DNA of 64,000 nt. Source: Macrostomum hystrix (taxonomy: Eukaryota > Animalia > Platyhelminthes). Location: positions 16,244,001 through 16,308,000 of the forward strand of contig CATNEN010000001.1 of NCBI GenBank assembly GCA_950097015.1, in the 5' to 3' direction. A model generated the notes under the pieces. That model ran no database searches and was not told the origin of the DNA. It saw only the letters and a program-made list of their open reading frames with translations. This document shows positions 1 through 39,663 of the stretch, in pieces; position 1 is the stretch's first letter; each line of letters opens with the position of its first letter. Both the position numbers and the translations under genes were made by a program.

Positions 1-2212
1 CCGTGCCTACCCCAAGCAGTGCTCGAAACCGGCTAAAAGTCTAAGAAGAGGGTCGGACTGCCCGGAATCGGACAGGGCAGGGCTAACTAGTCTACTGCCG
101 TCAGTAGCGTGTAAGTAACTGACTCCTAACCGTGGTAGCGGTGGTCGAAACGGCCCAGGCTCTTGTCACAGAAATGCGGAAAGGCTATTGGCAAAGCGGA
201 AAATGATCTCAGGTAGCGCCACCACCCAATGCGCCTACGTTGCCACCGCAGACATTTGGGAACTTGGGTCCCCCGAGTACACAGCTCCTAGTTTATCACG
301 CAGATCTAGACAAGCCGAAAAATAGGGCATTCTGCAACTTCCGTTTTAGACTGGGGTGAGAACCCCAGAATGGATCGAGACACGCCTCAAAAGGGGATTC
401 CTGAATTTGCGCTACAGGGGTCTAGAAAGGTGGTACTAAGAACTCGAATGAGAATCCATAGCCGGAATCCTACCCATGAAACATCAGGCACATTCTTTAC
501 ATTAGACTGCAGCCTACACATTAAGTAACTAGCAAATCCGAATCTGTGTGAGATGAGGAAATCAGAGGCTGGAGAGATTAAGCAGAACCTGGCTGAGTGA
601 TTATGCAAGCGAAGGATTAATTGGTCATCGCCCTCGCTTCCGTGGCGGCAGTCGCGAAAGGCGGGGAGCAGAGAGGAAACTAGATTGACAGGGGAGTTTG
701 ACACGTACTCCTTGATCCGCCAGGGAGAGAGGAAAAACCCGCCAAGGAATTCCCCACCCCTAGCAGAGAAACACATGCTACGCTCCGCATTTTGCCTGCA
801 AATCCCTAGCTCCTTATTACTCTTATGCGCGCTTACAATTGCCTTCCTGCCGCGGCCTTCAGCTCGGCATCACCAGAACCCGCCCCCCCTAAGCGATTAG
901 CCACTCATGATAGAGGGCTGTCTAACGATAAAATAAGGGCGAAAGGGAGACATAGTAAAAGGTTTAAGTTGGTTATAAAAATAGCCCAATAAGTTAAATG
1001 ATGGCTGTAAATTAGATAGTTTATTAGGCTAAACAATTCCTAGCTCCCCTCCCACTAAGTGCCGCCTAACTTAAGGTAAATTGTCCCTTAGGATTAACAA
1101 TAATAAGCCGCTGCGCGGATTACTTAGCTGAACCTCGCTTGGCCGCGTGCTGCAGTCCCGTTGTTCTCGGGGAGAAAGGATGGGCAAAATTAGCAAGGCC
1201 GAGAAAGGAACTTCTGCGAGTTGGCAGGGGCCAACGCACTGGGAGCTCAGAGGCTCAATTTAGAGCTCACCTAAAGAGGTGGCTTGCGCTCAAGGAATGG
1301 AAACAGGCAATTGGCCTGTGCTATCTGCTCGGAGCTCAAGGCTCGAGGGTCTAAGCCCTACGTGGGTCCGGAATAGTGCTCTGGGTCCGGTGGGAGTCCG
1401 GCCCGGCAAGGAAGTAGGTCCGGGGAAGGAGAGGTAGGTCTCCCGGAAGGATAGGTAGGTTGTCCTAGGGGCAGCGCAGCGCGCTTTCTTAAATAGTCCT
1501 GCAGCACGCCAACCCCGACATCCATCAAAGCAACCCACATTCGCGCCAGCCTGTCAACGGGGAATCGAAGCGGCGATGGCCGCTCCGATTACCCAATGAA
1601 CCGACGGCGGGAAACGACAGATGTTCTGCTCGAACAGCCGTCGGCAGTCGGCCAATGATTGTTACTCCGCCAGGACAATGGGAAGCGCAGGCGCCGACCT
1701 GCCAACAGTGACATTTACATGTATCTAAAGGAGGGAGGTCATAAAGTCGAGCTGGGCTCGAATACTGTAAAGAAGTGGGGACATGAAGAATTAATGATCA
1801 CTCATAATGCCCGAGTGATTCCCAATATCTGATCGCGGTTTGGAGGAGAATTATGACCTAAACTACTCATACAATAAAAGCTGTGGCCGCGATCAGTCAT
1901 TCCTACAGGGGTCTAGACAGATCCAGGGAGAGGGGATTCGACGGCTACTTAATTCACCGCCGCCCCAAACCCGGCCCTAAGATTAATGATCGTGTTTGCG
2001 GCCAGCTGCTATGAGGGTCGCAATTATTAGGTACTTAAAAATTTGAAAAATTATGCTGGCTCACACTCCCACTCGATTCCCGCAGCACACTCCACATCAC
2101 TCCACCTTCGCTAGAGAAGAAATCCTAATGCGTACGTACGTACGGTTACTATAAATAGATTGGTGCGAGAGTAGAGAATGATCGGCGCCCCTAGTGATTA
2201 CGGTATAGCGTC

Positions 2213-2665
2213 CTATGGGGGGTGGGTGCGCATTCCAGTCGCGGCGAAATTGTTCTCGATGCCCAGGGGTATGCTCAGTCCCGGCTCGCCTTTTTCTCCA
2301 GGTGGTCGCAGCTGTGTCCATCTTTCCCTGCCCGACTTGGTTTCGGTTGCGCAATCCTGGGGGCCCGGCCGTTTTTCCTTGAGTCCGAGGGGTCCGGCCG
2401 TGCTCTCACCAGGTGGTTCCAGGTTGGTTGGCCCGTTCGCGTCCTCACCGATCCTGTTGCCGGGCATCGGTAGCCTCTGATTTGCCGCGCGCCCCAGGTG
2501 TTTCCGGCTGGCCGTGCCCGAAAATGCTCGCCGGGCCGGTTGCCTAGCCGTTGCGCGCGGTCCAATCGGCGCTGCAGCTGGTCGCAGCTGGGGAGACCGC
2601 TGCTCAGGCCGCTTGTGATTCTGTTGCCGGTCGAGGCGTCTCCTCCCCGAAAAGGTCAGGGCCAT
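2213..2665 (-). CDS. Orphan 150-aa basic, Pro/Arg/Gly-rich ORF divergent from the small gene at 2883
   Basis: ATG-initiated ORF starting about 100 bp from the promoter-like block at 2725-2780. No recognisable domain; it could be a chance ORF in GC-rich DNA. Confidence 0.3.
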   Translation of the reverse strand: MALTFSGRRRLDRQQNHKRPEQRSPQLRPAAAPIGPRATARQPARRAFSGTASRKHLGRAANQRLPMPGNRIGEDANGPTNLEPPGESTAGPLGLKEKRPGPQDCATETKSGRERWTQLRPPGEKGEPGLSIPLGIENNFAATGMRTHPP

Positions 2666-2724
2666 AACAACTAAACTGTCACTAGGGTCCCCCTATGCTG
2701 GAATTCCCCACATTCCCAACTGTC

Positions 2725-2780
2725 TTCCTATTGGCTGGCGCTCCCGCCACTTTACCCCTAAACTTAGGTGCTATAAAAGC
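2725..2780 (+). promoter_or_regulatory. Putative Pol II promoter (reverse CCAAT, E2F/GC-box-like motif, TATA box)
   Basis: ATTGG at about 2730, TGGCGCTCCCGCC, and CTATAAAAG at 2771-2779, about 105 bp upstream of the ATG at 2883. Confidence 0.45.
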
Positions 2781-2882
2781 AAACACTTGACGCCCCATTA
2801 ACTCAAGCCTGCTATCTTCCACCTACCGCTGTTTGTCATCTACTCGACTGCTCGTTGCAAATCTTTTTCGACTAATCTGACC

Positions 2883-3562
2883 ATGAAGCCTACCACCCAG
2901 CCTGTTGTCCCGCTAGTCGACGCCGCGGGCCCGACCCAGCTGCTGCCTGATGAAGAAAGGTGAGTTATTTTGCTTCTACTCGGCCTCCCAAGGCCGGTTA
3001 TTAAGGGGGTTTTGCGAGAGTTATTGCATAATTATTAGAATTAACATTAATCATGACCCTTGGCACGCCCAGCTTGTTTTACTCGAAATTGATCCCTGCC
3101 CAGGCCCAGATGCCCACCCCGCTGTCAACTAAAGAAACACTGCTGGCAGTTTTCTTTTAATTAGAGTTGGGTTGGACTTTAATTTCACCTAATACCTGCG
3201 CTGGCGATCGTCGCTATCAATAACTCATGAGTTTATCGCCCACCTAATTTTTCAGAAAACAGATGCCGCCACCGCCCACGCGGATCACCTTCAGCATTCG
3301 TAAGTTGCCTGAACTTGAATTCTAAAACCTCTAAAACCCTATCCGAATCTTGCCACCATTTGAAATACTTCCAACTACCCGAGCCTATCATCAACATGGA
3401 AAACTCGCCTTCCTTCCCACAGAGATCGAAGTGCCCTTCGGGCAGACGAATATTCCGGCAATGGTTCATAGCAATGCCCTGCTGGGGCCGCTTGGCCTGG
3501 CCACGGCGGCCGGCATAATGATGGCTGTGGCGGCACTATGGTACAGCCACCACCGCCAGTGA
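2883..3562 (+). CDS. Small 3-exon orphan gene, about 86 aa, with a C-terminal hydrophobic anchor (exons 2883-2959, 3256-3299, 3423-3562)
   Basis: Donors GTGAGT (2960) and GTAAGT (3300); acceptors TTTTTCAG and TTCCCACAG; phases 2 and 1 join in frame. Product: MKPTTQPVVPLVDAAGPTQLLPDEERKQMPPPPTRITFSIQIEVPFGQTNIPAMVHSNALLGPLGLATAAGIMMAVAALWYSHHRQ. Confidence 0.55.
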
Positions 3563-4625
3563 AGTGGTCTGGAAAAAGTTCTCCTATGAAAAAGTGACCC
3601 ATAGTTTCTTTTTTCGAATTACTGGTGTGTATAGAATTTTCCTAGTGTGCCGTGCTGCCTCCGTCGTTTTTTTTGAAAAATACAATTTTGCGAGTGTACC
3701 GTGCTGCTTCCGTAGTTTTAAAAATGTGATTATTCAGCCTGCCCAGTGATTTCTAAGCGATCTCTTTCGTTAAGTTCTTCACTGTTTTTTCTTCCTCTTA
3801 GAAACCTTATGCTCCTTCATACTAGAAGAACTCCAATCGAAAAGGCAACACGTCACCTGAGCTTGCCCACTAAAGTTTACCTCCTTACTAATAGTAAGTT
3901 TTAATCTGGCCCGAAAGCATATAGCATTGTTCTTACTTAGGTGCCCGCAGTTCCATTGACTCATCCTAGTTGTAAACAACCATGTTCCCAGACTAAGTGC
4001 CCTTTCATTCTCCTTGCATTTTACGTGAGAAAGAAAACCATTTGACAACTCGCTAACCCTCCGAGCCAATGAGAACACTCCCCTTAAGTCCTATCGTATG
4101 CCCGATCGGTTCCTTGTTTTGTGACTGCCCTCAACAAACATAGAGGTGCCCAACATACCACCCCGCTCACTTTAGCGGGTTGGTATCCCTCCTAAAATAG
4201 AAATCGTCCCGAGATGCACCCCACAGACCCACCCGAAGCAAAAAGGATAAAGAAGGGTGCCATGCATAATGCGGTGCGAAAAATGTTAAATGTTTGAGAA
4301 AAGAAGGTGCACTTCCTAGTTTGCTACAATCATTGAAAACATCTCATGCGAAAATCGTACAAGGGGAATTTCACCCCATTACGTATGTTTTTGTGGTTTT
4401 GGCTAGATTATAATAATTTTTAGGCAGAATTTTGGCGCCAAGATGGCTTTAATGAAAAAGGAAAACACAACACTACGAGAAAGAGTGCGCGGTGCGAAAA
4501 GTTATTAAAGGGGAGAAGAAAAGGGGAAAGGACAAGGGGGGAACAGGGAACAGGGGCCTAAAGGATAGGGGTCCTATTCCTACAGTTCGGCGGTCACCGC
4601 CCCAATTGATCCTACCTCGCGCCTC

Positions 4626-5207
4626 CTATTCTTCGGCCTCTTCCTTGATGGGCGTGCTTTCTGCTGGTCCCTCGCTAGCTCCTTCGCCTTCCATCTCTCT
4701 CACCATGCGGCCGAGCGTGCTGTCCCCGGGCGGTGGCTCTTCGGCGATGCGATGTCCGTGGAGCCATTCACGCCAGTCCGGGTCTGCCGCTGACCTCAGG
4801 GTGACCTCTGGCATCCCGATCCGGCGCATGACCAGCTGGTGCTCCAACTCTTCCTGTCCTGGGATCCTTTTGGCCTGCAACCAGGACGCGAGCTCATCGG
4901 GGATGGTGATGCTCCAATCCTCTGGCGGGCTGTACTCCATCCACCGCAGGTTCCAAGGGAGGTTTGCTTCGTCTTCTCCCCTAGGCGGCAGAGGATCCCG
5001 CTCCTCGCACCACGCCTGGGCCAGCCACCTAGATTCTGCCAGCTGGCAGGCAAGGGCGAGGTCGACGCCTGCTTGGGCCGCTCGGCCTAACATGGGTAGC
5101 AGCCACAGGCGGACCATCAGCCAGGTCCTCTTCCCTGCCAGTTCGCGGCGATAGTCCGTGGCGGCCACCTCTAGCCACCACGCCAGGACGGTGCCAAAAC
5201 TTGCCAT
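4626..5207 (-). CDS. Orphan 193-aa Trp-rich protein with an acidic tail
   Basis: ATG-initiated ORF with protein-like composition; TATTTA box about 70 bp upstream on the minus strand (about 5278-5284); C/T tract downstream. No domain recognised. Confidence 0.5.
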   Translation of the reverse strand: MASFGTVLAWWLEVAATDYRRELAGKRTWLMVRLWLLPMLGRAAQAGVDLALACQLAESRWLAQAWCEERDPLPPRGEDEANLPWNLRWMEYSPPEDWSITIPDELASWLQAKRIPGQEELEHQLVMRRIGMPEVTLRSAADPDWREWLHGHRIAEEPPPGDSTLGRMVREMEGEGASEGPAESTPIKEEAEE

Positions 5208-5355
5208 GTCTCCGCTAGAAATGGAATATCTATCCCAAGAACGAAATGAATGTCTCCCCTACACGCGGCTCTCCCTCTAAATAGTATCAAGGCCAGAAGG
5301 GGGGGGAAGAGAAGGGGGAGGGGGGAAAAATGGGGAGGGAGGAAGTTCCTCAGCC

Positions 5356-6737
5356 CTAAAAGGCAGGCTTCCGCCTGAGCGAGAAGGGAATAGACTGGCT
5401 GTAGATAATTAGATTTCGCGAGTCAAAATCGAGAATGGCGTGATGGTGAGCCAACCAGGAAGCGCCTAGCAGGGGAGAGCAGTCGCCCTCGACCACAAGG
5501 AATAGCGTATCCAGTGCTTCGGCGCCAACCTGTAATTTGATTCTGACTTGCGCGAGTGCAACAATTGGTGTGCCATTGTAAGCAATCAGTGAAAATTGGG
5601 GGGGGGTTCGAATGGGAACTGTCGGATGATGGATGATAGCGAGTCCGGGAGCACATTGACCATAGATCCAGTGTCGATCAACAGGTCAAGGGGTGTCCCG
5701 TCCACCTCCAAGGCGACCCATACCTCGCTAAGCTTCTCAGAGCGGTTGGGGCGGGTGCGCACTCGGGTGGGGACTCGGCCGAGTGAATTCACTCGGACTT
5801 CGATGAGGGAGGCATCAACGGGGGGGCCTCGATCGCCCGAGCTGCCTGAGGCGCCTCCGGATAATCGAGCTGCCTCCAGTCGGCGGCCCCACTCCCGTTT
5901 CCCGAAGCTGCGCCTCCACGGTGCCTTCGCCGCGCCCACGGCCTCTCCTGCCTGTGGTGCCAGTGGTGTCCTGTGGTGTGCGGACAAGGAGGCAGGACCG
6001 GGGCCAGCTTCGGCTCTCACCTGCCGCACTCGGCGGCGCGGATCCCGTTCAGCTGCCATCTCAAATGCCTGGGTGGCGGCGCGCAGCTCAGCGGCAGCCG
6101 CCTCTACCGTGGCGAATTCTAGCCGCATAATGGGCGCCAACACCTCCGGGGGAGCCGTAATACCTTCTAGGAAGGAGGCCAGGAGGGCTTGCTCAAAGGG
6201 TGGGCCGCGGCCATTTGGATTGACCTGGGTGGCCACAGACCGCAGGCGGTCAGCGAACGAGGCGTATGACTCGCCTCTGTCCTGCTTAAGATTGCGCCCG
6301 CTAAGGAGCCGGGCATAGGGCGTGCAGGCGCCGCTGAGGGCCTCGGTCAGGTCTTGCACAAACCGCGGGTAGGTCACCCGGCGCGGTAGGCTCATGGCCT
6401 GGGTCAGAGGTTCGCCCCCTAGGTGAGCCAGGAGGGTGAGGATCTTTTCCTCCTCCGTCTCCAGCCCCTCGGCCTCGACTTTTAAATTGAACCGGCGCAG
6501 CCAGCGGGGAAACGAGTCTTTCGCCGACTCGAACGGCTCTAAGGCAATTTTAACCCGGTGGGCCCTAGCCCGTCGCGGCTTTAAGCGCTCCATCAGGGAG
6601 GCCAGGCGCTCCACTGGGTCTGCCGGCTGGGCTGCCGCGGTTGCTGGGGGCTCGGCTCGCGCTGCTGCTGCAGCGCGGCCTCTGGGTGGGCGGGCATTGC
6701 CAATGGCCTCCACCACCTCATCCTCCTGGTCGGACAT
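5356..6737 (-). CDS. Ty3/Gypsy-type Gag capsid fused to a complete retropepsin protease, with one frameshift in a G9 run (5598-5606); no RT follows
   Basis: Capsid-like motifs LEPFES..DSFPRWLRRF and LKQDRGESYASFADRLR; catalytic LLIDTGSMVNVL. The -1 frame after the homopolymer reads QFSLIAYNGTPIVALAQVRIKL...DCSPLLGASWLAHHHAILDF...RRKPAF, with stop at 5358-5356. Confidence 0.85.
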
Positions 6738-6860
6738 GTCGACCAAAAGAGGAAATGAGGATTTTGCGAATTAAGAGGGGGTTGTCGCTAAAGCAACACT
6801 GGGGATGAGAAAGGGTGGGCTAAGCGGGATGCTGCACACGACAGTGGCCGTGGCAAACTG

Positions 6861-7392
6861 AGCAAATGAGAAGGCCGACGAGCTGGCCAGACAAGCCTTG
6901 AGCCTCGACCAGCAGATTGACCAAGTCGGACCGACTGCGCACCGCCTCGCCGTGAGACACATGCTCCGCAGATGGAGAGCCACTCGAGACAATTGTCACC
7001 CGCACCCAAGACCTACCCCTGGCCACCAAGACCTGGACCGGTGGGGACAGGCTACGTTGTGCCAGCTCCGAGTGCTCCGCTCCTCACTCACGAGAGACAC
7101 GATGCTGCGCTTCGGCCTGGCCGACAACGACAGGTGCCCTGCCTGCAACGAACCGGACTCGGTGGCCCACCTTCTCCTCGACTGCCCAGCCTACCAACCT
7201 GCTCGCAGCGAGGCCTGGGGGAACGGCCCCATTGACCTGGAGAGGGTCCTGGAGAGCGACGCGGCCCGCATCTGCGCCCGCATCGGCATCTGGCCGTACG
7301 GCCCCGCCCATCGACGACGCCGGCGGGCGTACGACCCCCACCCGGCCATCTGCGGATGACCGGAGTAGGGAGTGAAGAGAGAGAGAGAGAGA
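6861..7392 (+). mobile_element. 5'-truncated non-LTR retrotransposon (RNase H-containing, I-group-like), 3' end only
   Basis: RNase H C-terminal motif ANEKADELARQA, CCHC finger CPACNEPDSVAHLLLDC, stop at 7359, then a (GA)n tail. Confidence 0.8.
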
Positions 7393-7743
7393 GGAGGATT
7401 TGGACCAGGCCCTGCTGGTGGAGGTGGTCTAGGTGCCAGGCTGGCCAACATGCGAGGCATGATAGTCTACTGGGTTGCAGAGACTCTAGCTAGGAACGGT
7501 CTAGAAATGGATCTCCAAGACAGGCTTGAGAGGCTGGGTGTCGAGCTGATGGACGAAGATCTTGACCTAGATGGAGAGGCCGTGGTGATTGACATGAACG
7601 AGGCAGAGTTGAAGATAGACAGAGACTATCTGGCCGTCATGTTTGTGAAGAACTGGGACCAGCGTTTTCCCACCACTATCTCCATTGCCGCAGGGCTGGC
7701 TTCAAGTTCTCCTCCGGCCACAACCACAGTGCAGAAGGCATAC

Positions 7744-9797
7744 GGGTCATTCCATATAACTTGGACAAAAAATTGAAATTTTTTTCTTCCTATTCTAGTG
7801 TTTTTAATGACTTTTATTGTAACTATATATATTTAGCCAATAAGTTCTGATTTTGATAATTAGTTTTAAAAGAGGTATCTGCTCTTTTTTGCTTTCAAAC
7901 TATGATTAAATTCTTACACATGTAATTTAGAAATTGTACCACATCTTTACTATTTAATGGAACAATAACTATTGGTGGAGTGATCAGTGGAATAATCAGA
8001 TCATGTAGTACATATGCTCTTTTTACCCATTTCAATATTAGAATATTTTTCAGTTTGTATAGAAACATCATGTATTTTGTATAAAAGTTAGTCAGCTGTA
8101 TGAATGTTACGACCAGAATGTTTAAAATGCATTCAGTTCTACTCATTGAAGTGGAAGTTATTATAGGGTGCAGGGTACACTTAAAAAACTCATTCCTTAT
8201 GGTGTCAGTATTGTCAGAAATTTTTAGACTGCCACATTTTTCCATTGAGGCTAAAAACTGCTTGTTACGACCTGAATGTTGTGGTCGTAACATCCTCCTT
8301 CTGGTCGTAACATAGACGTTTGTATGCTATTATTCTGTGATATAATGTCAATATAATTATTCTCACAGCTCAATCCCCTTCTCGATTCAACATATGATGC
8401 AAACTATTCGTTCTATAGTCATATAAGTTACATTCTTCAGCTAGTAAGCTCTTTAAGCTCTTGCAAGCTCTTAAATTAAACAATTATGGTGAAAACGAGC
8501 GCGGAAAACTCTCGGAATTTTCGTCGTCGAGCTGGCGATGTCCTTCAAGCCTCCGAGCGAGAGCGCAGTCGAGTGCGGCGTCAGTTCGCAGACAGCGCAG
8601 ATATTGCGAAGCAGCGTGCACAAGCAAGGGAGCGAATGAAAAAGATGCGCCAGCGTCACCTGCGGTACGAATCTGATTGTATTTAAGTTGTTACAGCTAT
8701 GCAGTCAAACAGTTTATGTTTTATTTATAGCTAGCTTACAACAAATAACTGTAGATCGCCAATATCAAGAAGAATCACTTCTGGTCTGCAAGCTTATCAG
8801 TCCGAGCTACTTACCGTTCGCCTCTCTCTACAATGCAAGCACTTACTGAAGCTGCTCAATCCGAGGCTCCTGCCGAGCCACCGGTGAATCATGCACTTGA
8901 AGGAAATCCTTCAGCAACGTCGGCAAGCCAAACTGCAATTTAAATTGTAGTTGGAACATGGGTGCTCGTGAACTACAATGAGTTGAAATACCCTGGCGAA
9001 GTCACCAAAATTAGGAAGTCGGATGATAGTGCCACTGAGTACCGGGTCAACGTCATGGCCAAGTCTGGTGACCGCCATTTCATGTGGCCTAAGAAGAAGG
9101 ACGAAATTTATTATTATCAAGTAGATATAATTTAGGAAATTAGCCCACCAACTCCTGTCGACAGGCGGGGCCACTTCCATTTTGATGGTCTTCCATGAAC
9201 TTATTCTTCCAACTTATGCTTCTTATGCTTGCCACAACTTCTGACTATTCAGTGATGAAAATATTGGTCTGAAATGGTTGATAACACAAAAAATAGCTAT
9301 TCTATTATTCATTTATTATTCAAAGGTAGAAATTTGCCAAGGGATAGTACTTTGTTGATCTGAAATGAAAAAAAAATTAGAAGTCGGTAGTTTGAAATTT
9401 GTTACAACCGCAATGTTACAACTGCAAGGTTTAAAACAAGTTTAATAGTTCAAAGAGTTGTTATGCAATTATTATGTGCACTATTTTTTCTTGTTGTAAT
9501 AACATTTCAACACATTATTATTCATTACAGTGCCTCTAAGATTTGTAGATTGAGTAAATTCACGAACACAAAAGACATCCTTCAACTGTTTCGATTTCTC
9601 TTGTTACGACCATCATGTAACTTAGCCTTCAATTTATTTTGTTATCATTAGTCAAATGAGTAAAACAATTTTTTTTGTGTAACAGACATATTTTGCTTTT
9701 AGAATGACTCAAATATAAACGATTTTAGCTTATTATAGGGACTAATTCATGAGCTTGTATGTAAAAATGTTACGACCATCATTATATGGAATGACCC
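7744..9797 (+). mobile_element. Non-autonomous, internally deleted Sola2-type DNA transposon
   Basis: Perfect 16-bp TIRs GGGTCATTCCATATAA (7744-7759 / 9782-9797); 4-bp TSD ATAC; repeated TGTTACGACC motifs. Retains the basic N-terminus (8486, MVKTSAENSRNFRRR...) and the C-terminal module (about 8945-9198, VGTWVLVNYNELKYPGEV...FMWPKKKD) but no catalytic core. Confidence 0.85.
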
Positions 9798-11172: not shown

Positions 11173-14100
11173 ATGTCTCAGTCTCAGCAGACTGATTCCT
11201 CTGATTCATCTGATTCTGAGGCTGAGAGTCGTGAAGATGGCACTCATTGTGAACAAAGTCCAAGACCAGGACCAGGACCAGGTGAGCTGAGCTAAGCACT
11301 GAGTTTGTATTAGCTATTAATTAGTGTAAAATACCACGTTAGTCAACAAAACCTAATTTTGGTATGGTTTCATTCAAAGCTTCACAACTTTTACAAACTA
11401 TAAAACTATAACAAGAACTTGGTCTCAAAAGAAAGTAGACAAAATTTCACATCTTTTGACATATTGCATTTAAAAGTCTAATTGGTATTTGCTGAACAGT
11501 ATCCATTTTAGTAGACTTTTTTTGACAAAAATTGCAGAAATTAAAAAGGCAAGAAAAAGTGACTTTCAAAAAATGGACACTGCTTTCTTGCCAGGCAACA
11601 GATTACAACAAGTGACCACTTCTCTGACTAAAAACAAGCTAGGCTTTCATGAACTCATGATTCTTTTTTGTGCTCTCAGGACCAAAAACATTCATGCAAT
11701 GGATTGCAAAGTTTAAAAACATGTTTTTCACCTAAAATTTGTTGACTAACATGGTATTTTACACTATATAATTTTTATTGTGTTGTATAATTATAATAAT
11801 GTATAATTTTTTTTAATTGTGGCCTGTGGGCAAGAATGTGAATACTATATAATCTACTAGTTTCATTTAAACATTTCTATATTGTATACAAATTAGCAAA
11901 TATTAATTTTTCATTTTATAAAATTTTAAGCAGTTACAGAATGATGAATGAATCATACTGATATTGAGTTAAGAGTCTGTTAGACACTATGTGGGTAGTA
12001 GTGGTTGTGGAATTTCAATGTTACCAAAGCAGACTCTTCACAATTTTTGAAGTTGTTTTAAAAAATATGTTTTAAGTTCAAGAGTTATTAAAGCATTTCT
12101 TTACTTCTTCATAACATCATGTTACTTTTATATTATTAATTAACAGAATCTATTTCTCCTGCTCCTGTGCAGGCCCATGGACTAGCTGGTCCATGGGCAA
12201 GACTATTTGGAAAACGAGCTATGGACATAGACTCTTCCAACTCTCGTGCCACTGGACCCATAACATCCAAAGATGAACCACCATCCAAGAAAAGACGAGT
12301 TACTTGCAATGTCCATTACTGCTTGAATTGCCTCAGGGCTGGAAAGATCATTGTGCAATGCCGATTGTACCGAGGGAATGAGTCGTCGAAGAAACGGCAC
12401 ATTGCACACCATCATACAGATGCCAAGGGCACTGTTCTGCAGCGCCCAGAGTTTGGCTCGCAAGACAGTCTGCTGGTGCAGCAGCTGCTGCGGTCCAGGA
12501 CAGATGACATAGTACAGGAAGAAGCTTCCGAAGCGACTGAAAGTAATGCGCCTGACAACACTGGAGAGTCAGAGCTGGAGATAACTGCTGCCGACATTCC
12601 TGCTCCCATCAACCTAGCTGGTGACGTTAGAAATCATGTGTCTGCAGCTGATGTACAAGAATCGACATATAACTTTGGAGTAGGACGCATGCGCTTCCCA
12701 TCGGGAGTTTCCTGCATCTCAGGATCTGGAATCGAGGGTGTTAATGAGTTGGAGTCTTCAACTGCCAGCCTATCAGCGATGATGAAGTTGCTAGCAGAGC
12801 AGAATGAGCAACTGGCGAAGCAGTCGCAGCAGATTGCCAATCTGAGCGATGTTATTGCGAAGCAGTCGCAGGAAATTGCTAATCTTAGCACTAGATTGGC
12901 AAAGCTGTCAGCTCAGGGGCTTTCGGCCACAGAATCCGTTCCTACGCCAGCAGTTGGTCGAGCCTCAGTGCTGTCTACCGAGAAGTACGCTTGCTTGGCT
13001 GATCTTCTCAAGCACCATTATGTTGGTGTATGTCCAGTGGAAGAAGACTATATCGTTTACTGTGTGCCATGCTTCCAGTTGGCCCGCCAGTCGCGCGATG
13101 TCTCTGAAACAATGTCAGTTGAGGGTGTGCATCGTCTTATGTAAGTTTAGGACAATAAGTTTTTGGCCTCCAAGATCTATTTATTATAATTCATTTACAG
13201 AAAAACAATTTATACTTTATTCACAGAAACCCCTCATCTAAAGGATCAATTGGCACGGGCCTATTTGTCAACGCAGCGAAGATGGAGAAGCTGCATAATG
13301 ACCACTCAGCCTTCTGCAAATTCCGCTACGGGATTCTGAGCCACATGTCTGGAGCGAATAGCAGAGATCACCATTTTGCTGTTGATCTGCAGAATAATGA
13401 GGAGAAGCGAAACACTCTAAATCAGACGGTCGTTCGGAATATTATTCGAACTGCAGATCTACTCATCGAGACGGCGACTGCGGCCATGCATTACGAGCTG
13501 TTTATCAGTCATTTGGAGGCGTGTGAAGCCGAAGTTGGAAACATCGGACACGGATTGTGAGGGTTTTGCTGTTTCCGTTCACTTAGCCTATAAACATTGC
13601 CTACTAACTGGCTTTGCATTATTCACCCGTTCCAACTATATAGCCAATTCTGCAAGGAAATGTGGCGCCTGCTCGAGGTCTGCGTCGACAGGAGCACCAG
13701 CCAGTTTCTGCGCGCACCCCTGCCATCAACGGGTCTCCCGCCGCTCATCTGCCTCACCTGCGACAAAAGCACGCCGTCGCGCATCACTAACCAAGCGGTG
13801 ATGGTGTTGGCCAGGTAGAATTACCTCGCATCGCATTACTGAAGACATGATTTCTCCTAATCCCTACTGCCTCTCAGAATAATTATTTAAGAGCGAAATT
13901 CCTGCAATTCACAGGGATCAATCTGGTGAAGCTTTGGCTATCCCGGCTGGCGCACCTCCGATTTACGATAGCGGTATGGACGCAGGAGGCGAAGCCCTAA
14001 CCAAATTGCTGTTGGAGACGGTACGAGTATTCGATCCTCCCTTGCGCAGTATCGTCGGCGTCGTTGCCGATGGTCAGTACATCTACAATCGGCCGTTCGC

Positions 14101-17100
14101 AGATGCGTTGCGCAGGCAGTTGAATATCGACGTCGATGACAAGGAGTTTGTGCCCATCAGCTGGGATGCGGCGCACTATTTGAACCTGGCGGTCACCGAT
14201 GTCCGCGATGGCCGAAACCCCAACGGAGAGTTCTTCAGCCGGTTTGTAAAGCGGGCCAACGAATTTTCCCACCAGTTTGGTCGAGGCCGGGGCTTTGCCG
14301 CTTTAGAAGAAGCGACGGAGGAGGGTGCCAGGTGCATCTCCTCATTTGCGACACATCGCTTCGCCAGCTCAGCTATGAAGCAGTGGGAGGCCATCGCGTC
14401 TTCTTATGGTGTAAGTAATGGCTGCCATAAAAATCGATACTCGATACTCGATACTCGCATTAGTATTACAGGGTATTTCCCAACGGTGTTACACACTAGT
14501 TCGGAAAAGTGTCATATATAATTTTTTAATCAAATAACTCACAACTAAGCTTAGGAAATTGTGATATTATGTTCTGTTATGTTATTATTGTTTAATTTAG
14601 TATAATTTGTTTTACTTTAGACCTATTTATTCCAGTTTTTATTACTTTTTAAATTCGAAAAATACTGTAAACAATGTAAAACTCCATGTCCAAAAATATG
14701 GTAGCCTAGTTCCCTGTCTATAAAAACGTGACTATATGTTCATTTCTTATTGCTTCTATGTTGTATTCAGCCACTCATATGTTATACCTGATTGCACAAC
14801 CGTTATTTCTAGTTTCTAAACAGTTTTGACGGAATTTTAAAGGTTCCTAGCATGTCCTACAAAATGTGTCATCTGAGCGACGCTAGACATGCGTAAATTG
14901 AAGTCAGATATTTAAGCTATGGAAAGTGTATTAAACAAAGGCATTGGCTTAAATAATTGTCATGCTGTATAGTCTAATGTCTGGTCTCACCCTGTGACTC
15001 GTTGAGGAATATAGTTTTTTCACAAACTCAAACATTTTTACGTTTTTTCGTGTACAGTTTTTGTCATCTGAGCGACGCAAGAAAAATTAAATTTTTTATT
15101 ACACAGTCAAACTAAAGAAAGAAGTAGAATTTTATTCTTAATTGAGAATAAATTTTGATTATAATGACGTATGATTTGACTATGAATATATTTGGATTCA
15201 ACTAAAAAGTTGACAATACACCAGTTTGTGTCATCTAAGCGACGTCATCTGAGCGACGTCGCTCAGATGACGTCGCTCATATGACATACCAAAGTGTGCA
15301 AATTAGGTTGGATTTATAGCCTTTATGTTAGTCATTCCAGCTACATCAGAATGCCAGAGAATCCCGAGCTCAAGAAGATGCGGCAGTTAGCCTACCGACA
15401 ACGAAAAAAGGAGGATGACAATTGGAGAAAGAAGCGAAATGAGACAAGCAAAAAGAGCTATCATGAAAAGAAGATGGGGCCCATGACAGAGCGCGACTGG
15501 CGTATGAAACGTCGTGTCTGGAAGAAAAATCAGAAAAAGTGCCGACTGCAAAAGAAGTCTAAACTCGAGCAGGAGACACTGCAGCCTCTGAATTTTGCTA
15601 ATGGTGAACATACGTCCGACTCTGACACCAGTGTTAATACGGTGCCACTCGTGTCTGTCGATGTCCAAGTAAGCACACCAAAAACTACAAAAAGAGGGCG
15701 TGAACGTCATTCTGGTGCTGGCCGCACCTTGGAGGGGACACCCCGAGGGACCGTGCGAAACGTCACGCCAGCTTCATTGGCAGCACAGCGTCGTGAAAAG
15801 CGCAAAACTGAGCAGCGGATTCACAGACTGCGCTCAGAGCTAGCTAAGTACAAACGGTACTACTGGCGCTTGTACACGAGAGCTAATCGGCAAAAAAAGG
15901 TATGCATTGCCAGTACACACGTGTAGGACTGTGGCAGCTTCGACTGTCATGGCAGAGCGAGTCATGCAGACCAGGCAGCGTGGCGTTCGGTGTCCAGTGG
16001 CCATCATGCCATCATGCGCGAAAAGCTACAGGCACATGAGGTGTTTCTGCAGCACCTGCGAGAAGTGAAGACAAAGCGCCCAGTGATGCGCCTGACAGTG
16101 GCTCTGCTCAACCGATCGCGAAAAATACTACGAATGGGCGGAGCAGCTGGGGTAAAGAGGAAATTTTTATCTTACATTTATTTTGGACAGTTGCGCAACT
16201 AGGATTTTTTAATTTTTTGTCGGTCTCCAAGCAAGCAAGTGAAGTTGCATTTAAAGCATAATTTGAATCATTTTCAGGTAACATTTTATAAATCTGTTGC
16301 ACTTCTCACAGGCCCGCAGCGCTCGCTACCTGGTTCGCTTGTTGGCCGTCGACCCCAGGACGGCCAAGAAGCATGAGCAACCACGACCAGTGGAAGAGCT
16401 GCCAGCCAGTGCCCAAAGACGACAGTATGTCGAGTCATTCTTCTGTCGTGACGAGAATTCCCGCCTCGCTGCTGGGAAGCGTGATACGGTCACACGAAAC
16501 AAGGTCAAACAGCAGAAGCGGTACTTAAACTTCAGCATTGCCATTCTGTACAGCAAGTACGTTGCCGAAGTTGGTGAAGAGGTGGCTGTCAGCGCTACGA
16601 CTTTCTACCGTTGGCGGCCATTTTATGTTGTGTGGCCTCAGCTGAATGACCGGAGCCAATGCATGTGCATGCCATGTGCCAACATGAGGGTAAATTTAAG
16701 ACCAAACATCATAGGATTGTAAGTGCATGAAATGAAATTATAATAAATTTGAATGCTAATTTTCTCTGCATTTTTTACAGCTTCTGGTCGATGGCCTCTA
16801 TGCACGCCAGTTACTGCGATGCCGTGGTCTTGACGATCTTGTGGAAAAGATTGTTTGCCGAAGCGACAGCACTGACTGCATGTATGGCAGATGCAACCTC
16901 TGTTGCGACCGGACTGTGCGGGCAGCTGAAGGCCCGCTCAGTGATGCCCAGTTGAATAGCTCAGTGCGCTACCATGAGTGGGGTGAATCGGGCGGGTACA
17001 ATGGTGTTGTCTGCATGCAGGTAAAAATGAAAATTATCAGTATTATTACCTTGAGGAGCCTACTGGTCCAATGAAATCTGAAGTATTTACTAAATATTAC

Positions 17101-20100
17101 CCTGCCTTTCAGAAGTCTGCTCTGGCTCTGGAACTCTGTGAGCAGTTCGAGCAGCAACTACGTCGCTATGCCCAACACACTTTGCGCGTGCGGCACCAGC
17201 TGCAGGCATTCCGAGTGGCACGCACCACCTTAGCGCCGGGAGAAATCATCCTGCATGTTGATTACTCTGAAAACTTTTCTGCCAAATACGCCGAAGAAGT
17301 TCAGTCCTGCCACTTTGGCGGCAGAGCCCAAGTCGTTATTCATCAGGGCATCCTGTACACGGCTGACGTAAGTGACATATACTATGTGCATTATCAATAT
17401 ACTTACTGCATGGGAGTGAAATCAGAGTGCATGCACGGTAATACTATGCAGCAGTGATACATTTACAGACGTCTACAGTATGTATTCTCATTTCAGGAGA
17501 CTCCTCAGGCATTTGCCTCGCTGTCAGCTGACACGAGGAAGAAAGCAGCTGGGGTCATGGCACATTTGCGCAGCATCCTTGACTATGCCAGTGACCGTTG
17601 GTCAACCCTTCGCAAGGTCACCATCCTGTCCGACTCTCCGTCCTCGCAATACCGCAATCGGTACTGCTTGTACCTAATGCGACAAGAGATGCAGGCACGT
17701 GGCATCAACGCATGGGAGTGGCTCTTTTCTGAAGCAGGCCACGGCAAGGGTGCTGCTGATGGAGTTGGCGCCGCCATCAAGCGCAGATGTGACGCTGCCG
17801 TCTCAAAGGGCTTCACTGTAGAGACCCCTAGCCATGTCATCAGTGCTGTCAAGGAGTCTGATGATTCGACGAAGATCCTGCTATTTGAGGTAAAGTCAGT
17901 ATAATTACATTTATCATATTTTCCTACTTTTTATTGTGCCATTTGTACTTATCACACCCGTAGGTCACTAGCCGCGACATCGACCATGCACAGGCAGTGC
18001 TGGATGAGGCCACCGTCCCACCAATGAAGGGTCTATCACGCTGTCATCAGGTGTGCGGAAATGCACTCCAGCAGTCCACTGTGTACCGTGAGCTCGCCTG
18101 CCGCTGTGCAAGTGACCCCATGCAGTGCACGTGCCACGGCACCAAGGTTTGGGGTGGCACGGACACCGATCAACGCCAACCAGCGCGGGATATGACTCCT
18201 GAAGCTCCTGAAGCTCATGTGGGCAGCTACGTGGCTGTTTCGTATGAGACCAGGGGTCGCATCGACTGGTACATTGGCCAGGTCACAGCTGTTGATGGTG
18301 GGAACCTGAGAGTTTCTTACATGACCAAGCTGCCAGGTGACAGGTATGTTGTAACAGTGAATGCTACAACTTTAAATTATATTGAATACTTTCAAGCTCA
18401 GTTACATTCTGGGAGGTCATATTTACTTTGCAGACTGTACTGGTCCCCCAAACCTGATGTCCTTGATGTTGAGCGCGCGTCGGTGCTGTGGGTCCTGCAG
18501 ACAGTGCCAGAGATCTGCCCAGGGACGTCTGGCTCCAGGCGTGTTGTGTGTCAGCTATCGAAAGACGATGTGGAGCATGTCCAGTCCGCATTTGCTGCCG
18601 AAGGCTGACACTCAATTCAGCTTGAGTCTCGAACTGTCCACTGAGCACTTCATCAGACTTAATGCTACTTACACTTGCTTACACCAACTGTACTTTAAGT
18701 CCCGCGTGTTGCTTGATATGCTTGCTAAGTTCTGTTGTTATATTACTGGCATTCATCAAGCTTGAACTGCACACGCGGTGAAGCAAGAAAAAAAGGAAAA
18801 CGCATTATGGACACGAATTTTGTGAAGTAAATTAGTTTTAGTTTTTATTCTATAAAAAGCGAGCGGTATATCCGAATGAGTTATCTAGAGATAATAGCTG
18901 CAAACCTAAAAACGTTATGCACGGCTTTATAGTGTATTTAAATTACGACATACTAATATAACAAATCAAACTAAATAGCATGTTTAACTTAGAACTACAC
19001 GCTTAAAAACTTGCACATGTGTCTTTAGTTTTCATTCTGATCGAGTAATCTAGCACATAAAGCATATAGGAAGTATACAAATAGTTGTCATCTGAGCGAC
19101 GCGTCATTGTCATCTGAGCGACGGTAGTGTCATCTGAGCGACGGGTAAATGTCATCTAAGCGACGGTCTGTAAAAAAAATAAAATATTTAAGACAGTTAG
19201 GCACAGGAAAACTGCTTTCGACTTAATATTTATACAGTATATGATGTGAGTGATGATTTAAAATGCTTTCGCCAATACATAAGTAAAAAAATTAAATTTA
19301 CAACATGTGTGTATTTTTTTTGGGAAACACCCTACACATTTTTGCACAGGCTCTGCACAAGGCATTCCGTGCGGAAAACCCAAACTGCAATGACGACGAG
19401 ACTTTGCAGTACGCGATGTTTGGCTGTGATTTTGTCTTTGACATGCTGGCCCTGCTCGATTTGTTAGCACCCCTCCGTGAACTGATGGAAATCGCCCAGG
19501 TAAGTCTAAAATACTTTTTAGCAGCTTGTTTCTTCCTTGCTTCTGCGTCATGTTGCTGTTGGCCTTCAATTACACAGGACCTTCAGCAGCCCCACTGGAA
19601 AGTGTCACTGCTGTGGCAGAAGGTCGCCAGCTACTTGAAGCGAAGGTCGGAATGCTTCCGCCTTTCCGACTATCCACGGCTAGCCTCGTGCTACGACTCA
19701 ATTCGACCTGGCGGTGTATTCGACGGCGTGCCACTACTCGACGGTTGGCTGGTGACGAATGAGGGCGCACAGACGGCGTCTTCAGGGCGTATTGGGCGGA
19801 CGACGAATGAGGCGCAGGTTAATTGGGTCGCACGCGACCGCGATGACATGCAAAGCGACATTGTTAAGCTTGCTGGTGCGCTGCACGATAGCCTCACTGA
19901 GCGCATCTCGAAGTCCTCCAATGCAGCAGTTTCTGATTGTGCAGTTATGGATGCTGCTACCGTCATTGGACTGCTGGCTTCGAACGATTTCGACGTCGAC
20001 GTAGAGGCTTACACGGAGTCCCCCTCGGCCAAACGTCTCGTCGAACAAGCGCAGCGCCACGAACATCTGCAAATGAACGCGAAGTTATCGCGCAAGTATG

Positions 20101-20895
20101 TTGCTGCATACGTGGCCAGTGTGCACCAGGCGTTTAAGACTGGCAGGGGCCGTGAAAAATGGCTGTCGCCAGCCGTCTCGGAGCCAATTGTCGCCATCCG
20201 TGTCGCCGCCGACGCCGACTCATGCCGCCTCGATCTCCACCTGGAAGTCGTGACGGAGTCTGGCAATACGGTGTTCACACGCCTTGTGGAGAAGGCTGTC
20301 TACCAGTCGATGTACCACGACCCACGGCTGTTCGAGCCTGCCGGACAAAAGGCCTGTCATCTGCTGGATTTCGCGCTGCAACGCAGTGGTACTGGTGAGA
20401 TCAAGGCACACAGTTCTAAAAGTTTTAAATTGTTTAATTTTAACTCTAGGAAACTACAATGATGATCGTGTCTTTTGTCCTGTTCATTCACATCAAACTT
20501 ACATTACAATTAAATTCCGTGCTCTAATCTTGTCTTTACTTTCAGAGGCCATAGTAGAAACCTTCTACTCAGCCATGCGTTCGCAGCAGCAGCAAGGCGG
20601 CCAGTCGAATGATACTTTGGCGCAGCGGACGAAGCTTCATCTGACAATGCCGTCCATCAACACGCCGCAGATGGCTTCCCTCCTGGACGATGCTGCACGC
20701 CTATATTTCAAAGGCGACGAACAGCGCAGTCTACGTCCACATCGCGACCCACTCTTTTTTGACCCTAGAGGCCGGGCAAAAAAGAAGTATTTGGTCAGCA
20801 AGGTGGTCGACCGCCACACAACTTCGAAGCCGCGCTGCCCGTACATTGGCCGATCTGTGATCTGCGATCTGCGATGTGCGATCTGTGATCTGTGA
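11173..20895 (+). CDS. hAT-family DDE transposase, 8 exons, about 1138 aa (11173-11281, 12147-13140, 13227-13556, 13644-13814, 13915-14410, 19350-19499, 19578-20394, 20546-20895)
   Basis: All seven GT-AG junctions are phase-compatible and no internal stop was seen. Motifs in hAT order: LICLTCDKST (D), VGVVADGQY (D), WDAAHYLNLAV (C/DxxH), ATHRF, GTEAIVETFYS (E). Cys/His-rich region near the N-terminus. Confidence 0.85.
11322..11766. mobile_element. MITE in intron 1 of the hAT transposase
   Basis: 29-bp TIRs TAGTGTAAAATACCA(C/T)GTTAGTCAACAAA with one mismatch; non-coding AT-rich interior. The terminal TA may be a TA TSD, so the superfamily is unresolved. Confidence 0.8.
14471..19332 (+). mobile_element. 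Full-length Sola2-type DNA transposon nested in intron 5 of the hAT transposase
   Basis: TIRs GGGT(A/G)TTTCCCAA; 4-bp TSD TACA (14467-14470 / 19333-19336); GTCATCTGAGCGACG motifs near both ends (about 14868, 15063, 15229-15286, 19087-19165). Confidence 0.85.
15351..18608 (+). CDS. Sola2-type DDD transposase, 8 exons, about 864 aa (15351-15899, 15927-16151, 16312-16689, 16781-17020, 17113-17367, 17497-17889, 17964-18343, 18434-18608)
   Basis: Motifs LHVDYSENF...EVQSCHF, ILSDSPSSQYRN and SEAGHGKGAADGVG; junctions are phase-consistent. The first intron is only 27 nt and could instead be a nonsense mutation. Confidence 0.8.
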
Positions 20896-21013
20896 ATGCG
20901 ATAACCTAACTGTATGATGAACGTATTTTATTTCGTAACATTAATACATCATATAACCCTTAGGTTAACATAGGGTGCTTTTCTGTGTAGGGTCAGGGCT
21001 AGGGGACAGAAAC

Positions 21014-37877: not shown

Positions 37878-39663
37878 TTGAGTACTTAGCCAACTCTCAA
37901 CTTCAGCTCAAAGAAGAACTGCCGGCTTGTATTTGACTTGAGAATTTGTACGGGACAGTTCCTAATCGCACATTATAACCCCGAATAGCCAACCAATAGT
38001 CAACCAATGAGAGGCGAGCGCTTATCCTATTGGATGCAGGAGCCTTGGCTGATCCCTATTGATTCAGGATTCGATTTGGAGAAACCAATGAATGTGAGAT
38101 TTAGGATCAGAGAATAAGGAACTGGGATTTGGGATTTGGGAATTGGGTAAAAAAATTGGGATGTGGATTTAGAATCCGTCATAGGATTTAAGATTAGGGA
38201 TAGGCGTTTATGATATTGGAAGGGATTTAGGATAGGGATTGAGATCTGGTTACGGATTTAGATAGGCGATTTAGATGGATTTAAGATCAAGGATGGGAAT
38301 TTTACATACTACTATTTTTCAAGTCGCTGACTAGAATAAAAAATAACTAAAAAGTTGACGACTTTTCTACTGAAACAAAAGTTTTGTATGAGAAAAGATA
38401 ATGAAAGTATTTCTTTTGCATATATTTACAATTTTCTTTAATTCTTTTTAAAAATGATTTGTTGATTTTTTCTGTAAAAAATAATTTCGCATGCTCTCAC
38501 ATAGTACTGACAAGCACTAAGTAGTATGAATCACGAGAGTCAATTATTATTTGCAGGAAAAATGTTATTATTTGCTTGGAAAACGATGTGAATGGGGTTA
38601 AAAGTTTTGAGTAGATTTTGAGTTTTGAGTTTGAGTTCACTACAGAAATTTTACGCAATTGTTTAGTAGAGTTATAATAGCCAGACTTTAGCATTTTGTT
38701 ATATTTTTAAGAGCCATTGTTACCAAAATGATTCTATTAGAGATTAATCAATTTTGCAAATCTGATTCTGATTAAGAAACAACAGTTTGTTATTAGTTTC
38801 CATGGCAGCAAAATCACTTAGCCAAACAGGCCAGCAATTTGTGCCGCTGTGGCTGCGGGCTGTCCCTGCCTCGCGATACCAGCGGCAAACCTGCGACACG
38901 AGTTTGCAACAAACAAGCATCAAATATAATTGTGCAATTAACAGTAGTGAAAAACGACATAAAAAAACACGACAGGATTCATTAAAAAAACAAAGGGCGG
39001 AAATATTTTTCTTGTTCTGGAATAAGACAATGAGCTTTCTTCCAATGTTCTAAATAAATTATCCACGAATTAAAACAGAAACTGTTTCTTGTCTGGTCGA
39101 ACAAAATCATCTTGATTGACAGTTAAAACACTGATTTGTTACTTTCTTCTGTTTCAGTCTAGGCTGCATTGTTAAACTCGCGATAGCCGGACTCTGGCCT
39201 CGAACCATGGCTGGCCAAGCCTAAAATTGAAATCGATTTCACTCTGTTAAAATAGTGCGTCACAAATGCTATTCACACTACTAATTAATGGTCATTCTGT
39301 AAGTAGTATGCAAGCGAAATGTGTTTTTAAGGTGGAAATTTGTTTGAATAATCGCTTGAACAAAAAATATAAACTATGCTAAAGAACTTAAGAAGCAAGG
39401 ATTGATTTTAAAGAGGGACAAAAGAGAAGAGGAGACACAAAACACAATTAATGAACGACAACTAGCAGCTTAGTTTGCATTCGACAAAACAAGACAGGGA
39501 CAAGCCAGACAAGTCGACACTTGAATATAAAAAGTATTTTGTGTATAAATTAATTCATTGTAGAGCACATAAGACTTCCACGGAACAAATATATATGTAT
39601 TCTTATGCGTATGATCTGTAGCAATCGATAGTTAAATATGTGTATAAATATACTCTAAGGGTT

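Follow-up and report, generated by a model that had tools for sequence, protein, structure and literature searches.

A broken copy of a multi-copy, pol-less capsid-protease family with a conserved orphan gene in Macrostomum hystrix, probably a semi-autonomous Ty3/gypsy-type LTR retrotransposon

Retrotransposons that keep a capsid gene and do without reverse transcriptase (RT) and integrase have been described from both plants and fish. In wheat, RLG_Sabrina_SA is a Gypsy element whose GAG-Pro ORF is intact and which has neither RT nor integrase; it is thought to be mobilised by the autonomous RLG_Wilma, and its sister variants are reported to encode short orphan proteins (PMC9744471). Among non-autonomous LTR families of sugar beet, 28 of 115 are reported to keep GAG/PROT domains only (PMC13570524). 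The zebrafish BHIKHARI family (Bik-1, Bik-2) is a non-autonomous LTR family with gag and neither pol nor env, solo LTRs making up 337 of the 393 Bik-2 insertions (PMC12067270). Accessory genes are likewise on record. The Drosophila MDG1 group, a gypsy lineage, encodes two small accessory proteins of 63-107 aa, one soluble and the other transmembrane (sORF1 and sORF2), sORF2 being linked to cell-to-cell transfer (PMC11952523); Retand carries antisense ORFs in the stretch from the coding core to the 3' LTR, with some elements non-autonomous (PMC11963269); and the bdelloid ORF3s are extra genes in the same position, small transmembrane ORFs among them (PMC5408684). The survey of Macrostomum lignano is described as starting from RT (PMC12801592), and RT-seeded surveys are blind to pol-less families. 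Titles and abstract openings of the open-access literature yielded no Gag-protease-only family accompanied by an accessory ORF from flatworms or any other invertebrate.

The window analysed here is the whole 64,000-nt stretch of DNA, and its positions 1-6850 are probably one damaged copy, lacking its 5' end, of a pol-less family that is present in multiple copies and encodes a capsid, a protease and an orphan protein conserved among them. The family is likely a Ty3/gypsy-type LTR retrotransposon of the semi-autonomous kind, which would obtain RT and integrase from an autonomous partner. The parts of this copy, and the neighbour that cuts it, are as follows.

1..2099, minus strand: likely 3' LTR, more than 2.1 kb, running off the window; start at 2099 or 2096; CCAAT at 1593 and 1652, E2F-like sites at 1540 and 1613, TATA at 1495-1488, AATAAA at 1025
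2100..2109, minus strand: candidate polypurine tract by sequence, followed directly by TG; short, 10 nt with one pyrimidine
2110..2700, no strand assigned: non-coding block, conserved; TATA facing both ways at 2150-2157, E-boxes in a cluster; depth 50-77x
2772..3562, plus strand: three-exon micro-gene for a predicted tail-anchored membrane protein of 86 aa; TATA at 2772, exons 2883-2959, 3256-3299 and 3423-3562
3900..4625, no strand assigned: non-coding stretch shared among copies; E2F-like palindrome at 4431; depth in run X1 3190 (3901-4200) and 1209 (4201-4500)
4626..5207, minus strand: ORF2, 193 aa, acidic and rich in Trp, predicted to be helical and without a membrane segment; a TATA-like box of its own, TATTTAGA, at 5283-5276
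5356..5597, minus strand: protease, C-terminal half with the LLG motif, read in a second frame; stop at 5356, break at a G-run near 5598-5606
5586..6737, minus strand: gag fused to an aspartic protease's N-terminal half (DTG), 383 aa in all and ending prematurely in this copy; capsid of two domains (residues ~60-230), linker rich in Arg, CCHC absent
6862..7400, plus strand, not counted in the element: LINE fragment, the 3' end (zf-RVT, E 8.6e-6) with a GA tail, sitting where the 5' leader and 5' LTR would be expected

Gag reads on the minus strand from 6737 and has a single Cys, in keeping with the initial annotation's remark that it has no CCHC knuckle. Searches gave eight weak matches (E 2e-8 to 4e-4), seven of them with Gag, PNMA or CCHC Pfam domains, and in Atlas it fell with Retrotrans_gag clusters (0.91-0.95); a word-seeded protein search (0 of 7995 candidates) and a PDB sequence search returned no match. 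With the predicted model (pLDDT 72.6), the top 32 VIA-align matches were all retroelement capsids (best Z 9.1, rmsd 3.2, 96 aligned), a Z of about 9 being modest for a helical model, and Foldseek gave no capsid match at E<=0.001. As modelled, Gag has an ordinary retrotransposon capsid fold.

The protease had been taken as complete, in a frame running cleanly to the stop at 5356; instead the frame halts at 5588-5586, shortly past the catalytic DTG. The C-terminal half aligns locally with that of the P0004 protease at a score reached by 2 of 1000 shuffles, not significantly with the window's other gypsy protease (98 of 1000), and its pairwise BLASTP was not significant. With an X placed at the break, the protease aligns with P0004 protease residues 5-97 at a score that none of 1000 shuffles reached; against Pfam Asp_protease_2 it reaches E 0.06 only, with the DTG and LLG motifs present. 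A programmed frameshift was rejected because most of the contig depth covering the G-run differs in its length, and the protease of this copy is broken by frameshift. For membership in Ty3/gypsy, the Gag with its two-domain retrotransposon capsid and the aspartic protease behind it are both present; the RT-RNase H-integrase order that marks autonomous members is absent from the element, so the superfamily is assigned from Gag and protease.

Gag, protease and ORF2 are under purifying selection. Among the 40 best-supported of 250 entries, mostly reflecting one or two sister lineages, the listed changes are synonymous in 5 of 5 cases for gag, 11 of 17 for the C-terminal half of the protease and 13 of 16 for ORF2, the last against 0.28 expected (binomial p 1.4e-5), with 1 and 3 of 16 in the two control frames of ORF2. 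On this sequence evidence the TATA-preceded, Trp-rich ORF marked out in the initial annotation (5207..4626, 12 Trp) is a real gene. No homologue appeared in a word-seeded protein search (0 of 198 near-length candidates), in Atlas (no usable match) or in a viral-contig scan, and no longer protein containing ORF2 was found among 1444 candidates in a search weak by its own account. The single-sequence model has a pLDDT of 40.6, which makes the viral fold search with it (best match E 0.38) uninformative, and neither homology nor fold supports any role for ORF2. Our judgement is evenly divided on whether it is a soluble accessory protein acting on element RNA, on the particle or on host silencing.

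The antisense gene stood up to inspection as the three-exon, opposite-strand, tail-anchored micro-protein originally proposed: a TATA at 2772, a Kozak ATG, GT-AG junctions with GTGAGT and GTAAGT donors, and 86 aa with hydrophobic residues 61-79 (hydropathy 1.84 across these 19). None of 300 Markov-shuffled copies of 1-6850 yielded a gene of like structure, by criteria set after the gene had been seen. It lies in the least shared and most variable part of the element, and relatives of exons 2-3 come from runs X1 and X2 only. Its membrane segment ends 7 residues from the C-terminus and its sequence starts with MK, against the central segment, basic cytoplasmic tail and frequent MG start of sORF2/FAST-like fusogens, and membership in that group was rejected. 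The neighbouring stretch 3900..4625 likely holds the 3' ends of convergent genes. A divergent basic ORF (2665..2213, 150 aa) had also been offered as a gene and was rejected: its start codon is absent from all contigs in the three of three runs that cover it, other copies carry indels, and 1 of 8 changes is synonymous. The overlapping 150-aa and 100-aa ORFs of 2110..2700 are probably spurious; 6 of the 13 CAGGTG/CAGCTG boxes in 1-7000 fall within 2299-2590.

The stretch from 1 to about 2096 looks like a long 3' LTR, a reading drawn from its signals. Depth steps about 13-fold at 2100 (~50x to ~660x), and contigs end at 2096 (X5) and 2099 (X4). The TATA/CCAAT/E2F-like blocks of the initial annotation were found at 1488-1656, 2150 and 4431, the 1490-1660 block being best read as the promoter of this LTR. 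No second LTR, primer-binding site or target-site duplication is visible in the window, with the other end of the LTR outside it; no primer-binding site was seen in 6740-6860, the 5' end of the element being missing from this copy. The LINE fragment was rejected as part of the unit on zero depth at 6901-7500 in X2, X4 and X5, though all three carry the element, and single-copy DNA begins at 7405. The rest of the window holds no second copy of 1-7000, a long internal repeat is absent, and no tRNA gene occurs across the window; an Rfam scan of 1-7800 gave no match, and 1-7000 has no perfect heat-shock element, only three sites with one mismatch. None of the eight runs listed as carrying the sequence is of RNA, which bears neither way on expression.

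It should be considered whether these parts belong together at all, since gag-protease-ORF2 might be one pol-less repeat and the high-copy 1-2096, perhaps with the micro-gene region, other repeats adjoining only here. Contig depth in X1, relative to the single-copy flank (depth 79), is ~110-660x over 1-2100, 50-77x over 2101-2700, 2.5-6x over 3001-3900 and ~17x over 4201-6900, a part-to-part gap of up to ~260-fold that would suit such a patchwork, with the limit that summed contig depth is not copy number and is uneven within the putative LTR itself (110-660x). One X4 contig departs from the sequence of the window at 2655. X5, like X4, has no cover at 3301-3900, which is not read as absence. 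No listed contig spans the whole element, so linkage of all its parts in other copies is seen only piecewise. Against a patchwork, one X4 contig, a deletion derivative, bridges the 2100 boundary by joining 1163 to 2343; purine tract, TG, promoter and polyadenylation signal all point the same way as gag; and the TATA and first-donor stretches of the micro-gene recur, with a variable stretch between, in contigs of three of the four runs. We regard a patchwork as unlikely. The earlier proposal that the dense block is a single unit survives in part: capsid, protease and ORF2 travel together without pol, whereas the basic ORF is not conserved, the 1490-1660 promoters are better assigned to the LTR, and depth is not uniform across 1-6900.

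A semi-autonomous element must be told apart from an autonomous gypsy family with ORF2 as an accessory gene. In such a family, pol would sit at another place in the intact copies, or in a subfamily not represented here, and the copies here would be recent deletion derivatives whose ORF2 selection was inherited from an autonomous parent. Extra ORFs after pol are described as common in invertebrate LTR elements (PMC5408684), a pol-bearing contig could lie beyond the contig pieces listed (149 further pieces, 26 loose ends), and the much greater abundance of the LTR-like part over gag-ORF2 may mean a partner with another interior. As had been noted at the outset, RT, RNase H and integrase are missing from this copy, all 26 stop-to-stop frames of at least 70 aa from 1-5422 being without a Pfam match at E<=0.1. 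Contigs of X2 and X6 join 5211 to 5417 through 208 letters and 5185 to 5344 through 141. ORF2 identity in the two subfamilies is 95% and 77%: X6 record 22 has 28 differences in 588 in ORF2 and 54 in 384 in the protease, record 25 has 44 in 190 and 47 in 457. Both coding sides align while the spacers do not. Since two subfamilies so diverged (5% and 23% in ORF2), each with its own spacer, join protease to ORF2 over just 141 or 208 nt, the absence of pol is a trait of the family; the protease moreover terminates in a stop, and the search for longer ORF2-containing proteins, weak as it was, was empty. An autonomous family is accordingly quite improbable, and the initial annotation's own fallback, an ordinary Gypsy element with a private pol deletion and a long LTR, probably holds for the LTR and fails for the deletion. 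The window copy is closer to record 22 in ORF2 and to record 25 in the protease, a mixed affinity such as template switching between co-packaged RNAs would give.

The element is very probably neither a new virus class nor a domesticated gene, both of which had been suggested for it. Several internal promoters, an intron-containing gene and the lack of close relatives in the Gag and ORF2 protein searches, the metagenome scans (by Gag protein and by LTR motif) and the viral-contig scan could be taken to favour a virus-like or satellite element with a retro-type capsid and another replication route; this is very improbable, as capsid and protease are of ordinary retrotransposon type, the 3' end is LTR-like, antisense and extra ORFs are described in LTR elements (PMC11963269), and the tested frames hold no replication gene of any kind. 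A domesticated Arc- or PEG10-like capsid system with accessory genes is scarcely credible, because its purifying selection would be expected among copies of any transposing family, its fold neighbours Arc, PNMA2, MOAP1 and PEG10 appear because they are gypsy-derived capsids with solved structures, and in place of a single- or low-copy fixed locus with an intact frame and lost LTRs we see multiple copies, subfamilies, deletion derivatives, a mosaic look, an LTR-like end and a copy both frameshifted and cut by a LINE.

For the preferred semi-autonomous element, the LTR promoter (CCAAT/E2F/TATA) would drive genomic RNA in dividing cells, stem or germ; Gag-protease would build and mature particles, the Arg-rich linker replacing the zinc knuckle in RNA binding; and the element RNA would go into capsids either its own or mixed, to which a partner's Gag-Pol would supply RT and integrase. 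The purine tract at 2100-2109 may prime the plus strand, ORF2 would be made from its own internal TATA promoter, and the antisense membrane micro-gene may be cargo that certain subfamilies carry and can swap. No autonomous partner was recognised. More speculatively, and to us doubtful, the family might be a helper-dependent animal retro-satellite that captures a helper gypsy's RT and integrase for its own capsid and protease, with dedicated accessory roles for ORF2 and the tail-anchored micro-protein (packaging bias, silencing block, cell-to-cell particle transfer) and a 3' cargo slot whose content is exchanged between subfamilies, in the way that accessory genes vary among phage satellites.

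Pol-less elements with selected genes show what a retrotransposon must bring when it parasitises another, here capsid, protease and one orphan protein, and ORF2, an orphan both small and conserved, offers a clean system in which to look for a new accessory function of retroelements. The orphan genes have no known relatives; the surprise is limited because the broad kind of element is already known from plants and fish. In being multi-copy, keeping a selected Gag(-protease) and having neither RT nor integrase, the family matches semi-autonomous Gag-Pro elements, and non-autonomous elements were correctly named at the outset as a known case. The extra ORFs described for Retand (PMC11963269) and bdelloids (PMC5408684) have TRP28, GDSL, DEDDy or env domains, and those here have no Pfam match. 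MDG1-group elements, unlike this one, carry pol, and their sORF2 is described as having its membrane segment in the centre, a basic tail on the cytoplasmic side and in many cases a start with MG, whereas our micro-protein is antisense, interrupted by two introns, anchored C-terminally and begins with MK (PMC11952523). BHIKHARI resembles it as an animal, non-autonomous element with gag and no pol; it differs in being of ERV class, with a host role shown and, as described there, neither protease nor second gene (PMC12067270). The GAG/PROT-only beet and TR-GAG families share the retention of GAG/PROT without pol and are plant elements, described without a selected orphan accessory ORF (PMC13570524). 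RLG_Sabrina_SA likewise has GAG-Pro without RT or integrase; unlike the wheat Sabrina elements, in which orphan ORFs are reported to replace GAG-Pro (PMC9744471), the animal element has its ORF2 adjoining Gag-protease, with its own TATA-like box, and an antisense spliced membrane gene besides.

The element under study occupies window 1-6850 with its gag strand on the minus strand, and its parts are as follows.

6737..5586, minus strand: gag ORF, 383 aa
5207..4626, minus strand: ORF2, 193 aa
2772..3562, plus strand: three-exon micro-gene, predicted to encode an 86-aa tail-anchored membrane protein
2665..2213: basic ORF, 150 aa
1..2099, minus strand: putative 3' LTR, starting at 2099 or 2096

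Parts of this stretch are present in eight public sequencing runs from two studies. Depth in run X1 is 79 for the single-copy flank, and positions 4201-6900 average ~17 times the flank, a summed contig depth that is not a copy number and is readable only as 'many copies'. The initial annotation had recognised no RT, RNase H or integrase, and our search agrees, with Pfam matches in none of the 26 frames tested from 1-5422. Contigs from X2 and X6 carry the protease-ORF2 junction directly, with a spacer of 208 or 141 unalignable letters; here conservation extends over the coding sides but not over the spacer. Judged from these sequences the element is a repeat family, and the absence of pol appears to be a family trait among the contig pieces listed, a comparison drawn from the best 40 of 250 difference rows and a subset of contig pieces. 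A rarer, pol-bearing relative of the family may exist. Two subfamilies can be told apart against the window copy, the first matching it at 95% in ORF2 and 86% in the protease, the second at 77% and 90% respectively. The window copy looks like a recombinant of both, which would fit copying via co-packaged RNAs.

The gag ORF contains no CCHC knuckle in its 383 aa, as had been noted. The same frame had been described as running cleanly through the protease to a stop at 5356, and this did not hold: in the window copy it is broken at a G-run near 5598-5606, so that the gag ORF stops shortly 3' of the protease DTG motif and the second half of the protease lies in a separate frame ending at 5356. The length of the G-run varies in contigs of other copies in all four runs covering the site, length variants forming the majority by depth in X1, X2 and X6 and less than half in X5. 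Among the best 40 of 250 difference rows, changes were synonymous in their own frame at 5/5 positions on the gag side and 11/17 in the C-terminal half of the protease. Because other copies differ at the G-run and both sides are mostly synonymous, the break is either a defect of this copy or a homopolymer slip in assembly.

Searched against 1.84 billion representatives, Gag gave eight HMMER matches (E 2.4e-8 to 4.3e-4), seven with Retrotrans_gag, PNMA or zinc-knuckle domains. Three of these weak relatives are named, two being Macrostomum lignano proteins at 27-29% identity; on this basis a host resembling Macrostomum would be about as likely as not. The Atlas matches are Retrotrans_gag clusters. 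A structure model built from seven input sequences (pLDDT 72.6) was aligned by VIA-align to retroelement capsids only in the top 32 rows (best Z 9.1, rmsd 3.2, 96 aligned), while Foldseek placed Arc, MLV and PNMA2 on top, none at E 0.001. The predicted fold and the sequence matches together indicate that the capsid is real.

The proposed 193-aa ORF was likewise borne out. ORF2 accounts for 16 of the best 40 of 250 difference rows, and 13 of these 16 are synonymous against an expected fraction of 0.28 (p 1.4e-5, sites taken as independent); as a control, its alternative frames gave 1/16 and 3/16. A TATA-like box lies 69 nt upstream. The product is acidic (35 D/E, 20 K/R) with 12 Trp, no membrane segment was found in it, and neither sequence nor fold searches returned relatives. 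We regard ORF2 as a real orphan gene.

The three-exon gene is present as described, and its build is strong, with 0 of 300 shuffles equalling it under criteria picked after the fact. Contigs from three runs share its TATA and first donor. The gene body lies within the least shared part of the element (depth 2.5-6x); exons 2-3 match one X2 contig at 86%, and exon 2 is skipped in one diverged X1 contig. A second ATG at 2950, just 5' of the first donor, lies inside the stretch common to other copies, and a start there would yield a different, basic peptide. The 150-aa basic ORF did not survive as a gene. Of 951 difference rows 40 were listed; removing those at 1-1808, two that are non-coding and two duplicates left 11, of which this ORF contains eight, one of them synonymous. 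Its start codon is absent from all contigs covering the site, and other copies carry indels. A regulatory block with a cluster of E-boxes fits this region better.

At the left end, depth steps at 2100 from ~50x to ~660x, contigs terminate at 2096 and 2099, and exactly at this position the gag strand reads a purine tract followed by TG. The promoter-like blocks reported earlier (about 1490-1660, 2150 and 4430) were found as stated. In the left part a minus-strand TATA at 1495 has CCAAT and E2F-like sites ahead of it and an AATAAA after it, at 1025. Many deletion joints fall within 360-2343, one crossing the 2100 boundary. An 18-nt motif occurs twice (412-429 and 1903-1920, 94% alike), in the two most abundant parts of the putative LTR. 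By analogy with established LTR structure, the left 2.1 kb would be a long 3' LTR that also exists in many copies, as solo LTRs or in partner elements, and the element likely belongs to the LTR retrotransposons. There is no 5' LTR to match it: at ~6860 the 3' fragment of a LINE starts, and single-copy DNA comes next.

We consider it probable that this is a semi-autonomous gypsy-type element. LTR-driven RNA would give rise to Gag-protease, and its own or mixed particles would acquire RT and integrase from a helper. An internal promoter would drive ORF2 as a putative accessory factor, and the 2700-3900 slot may hold variable cargo.

The window is animal DNA: it includes one exon each of an SLC4 anion exchanger and a Cys-loop receptor, a fibrinogen domain, and fragments of ordinary gypsy elements.

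57380-60713, minus strand: SLC4 bicarbonate-transporter gene; its exon at 57383-58387 scores Pfam E 4e-95, and more exons lie upstream
46528-48530, plus strand: another gypsy-type gag, with CCHC, whose frame overlaps that of a protease
51687-53189, minus strand: C-terminal part of a gypsy integrase with a long Pro/Gln-rich repeat tail
55986-56313, 58497-58725, 60734-61090, 63199-63536 and 30192-30270, both orientations: dispersed short repeat with a tRNA-like head

The dispersed repeat is probably a SINE family; ARAGORN found no tRNA genes in the window. Several long ORFs at 12140-20900 (plus strand), those at 13883 and 17964 among them, are possibly nested DNA transposons; the four tested, at 12140, 15285, 16987 and 19296, gave no useful Pfam match. 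Minisatellite arrays unrelated to one another, their periods ranging over 8-48 nt, are densely packed at 25900-40450 and 52000-62700.

Compared with known systems, the element did not fit as an autonomous gypsy, as a FAST/sORF2 member or as a domesticated gag gene. In its proposed working it resembles wheat RLG_Sabrina_SA, which has GAG-Pro without RT and orphan short proteins in sister variants (PMC9744471). Other papers describe 28 sugar beet families with GAG/PROT only (PMC13570524) and zebrafish Bik-2, with gag alone and mostly solo LTRs (PMC12067270). Accessory small ORFs are likewise described for Drosophila MDG1-group elements (PMC11952523), Retand (PMC11963269) and bdelloid elements (PMC5408684), beside which CERV of Cer1 may be a further case (PMC10309623). 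Within the open-access literature we found no description of the same gene combination in any invertebrate. The element is real, well defined and ordinary in kind; what is unusual is that a selected orphan gene and a predicted spliced antisense membrane gene are kept without pol.
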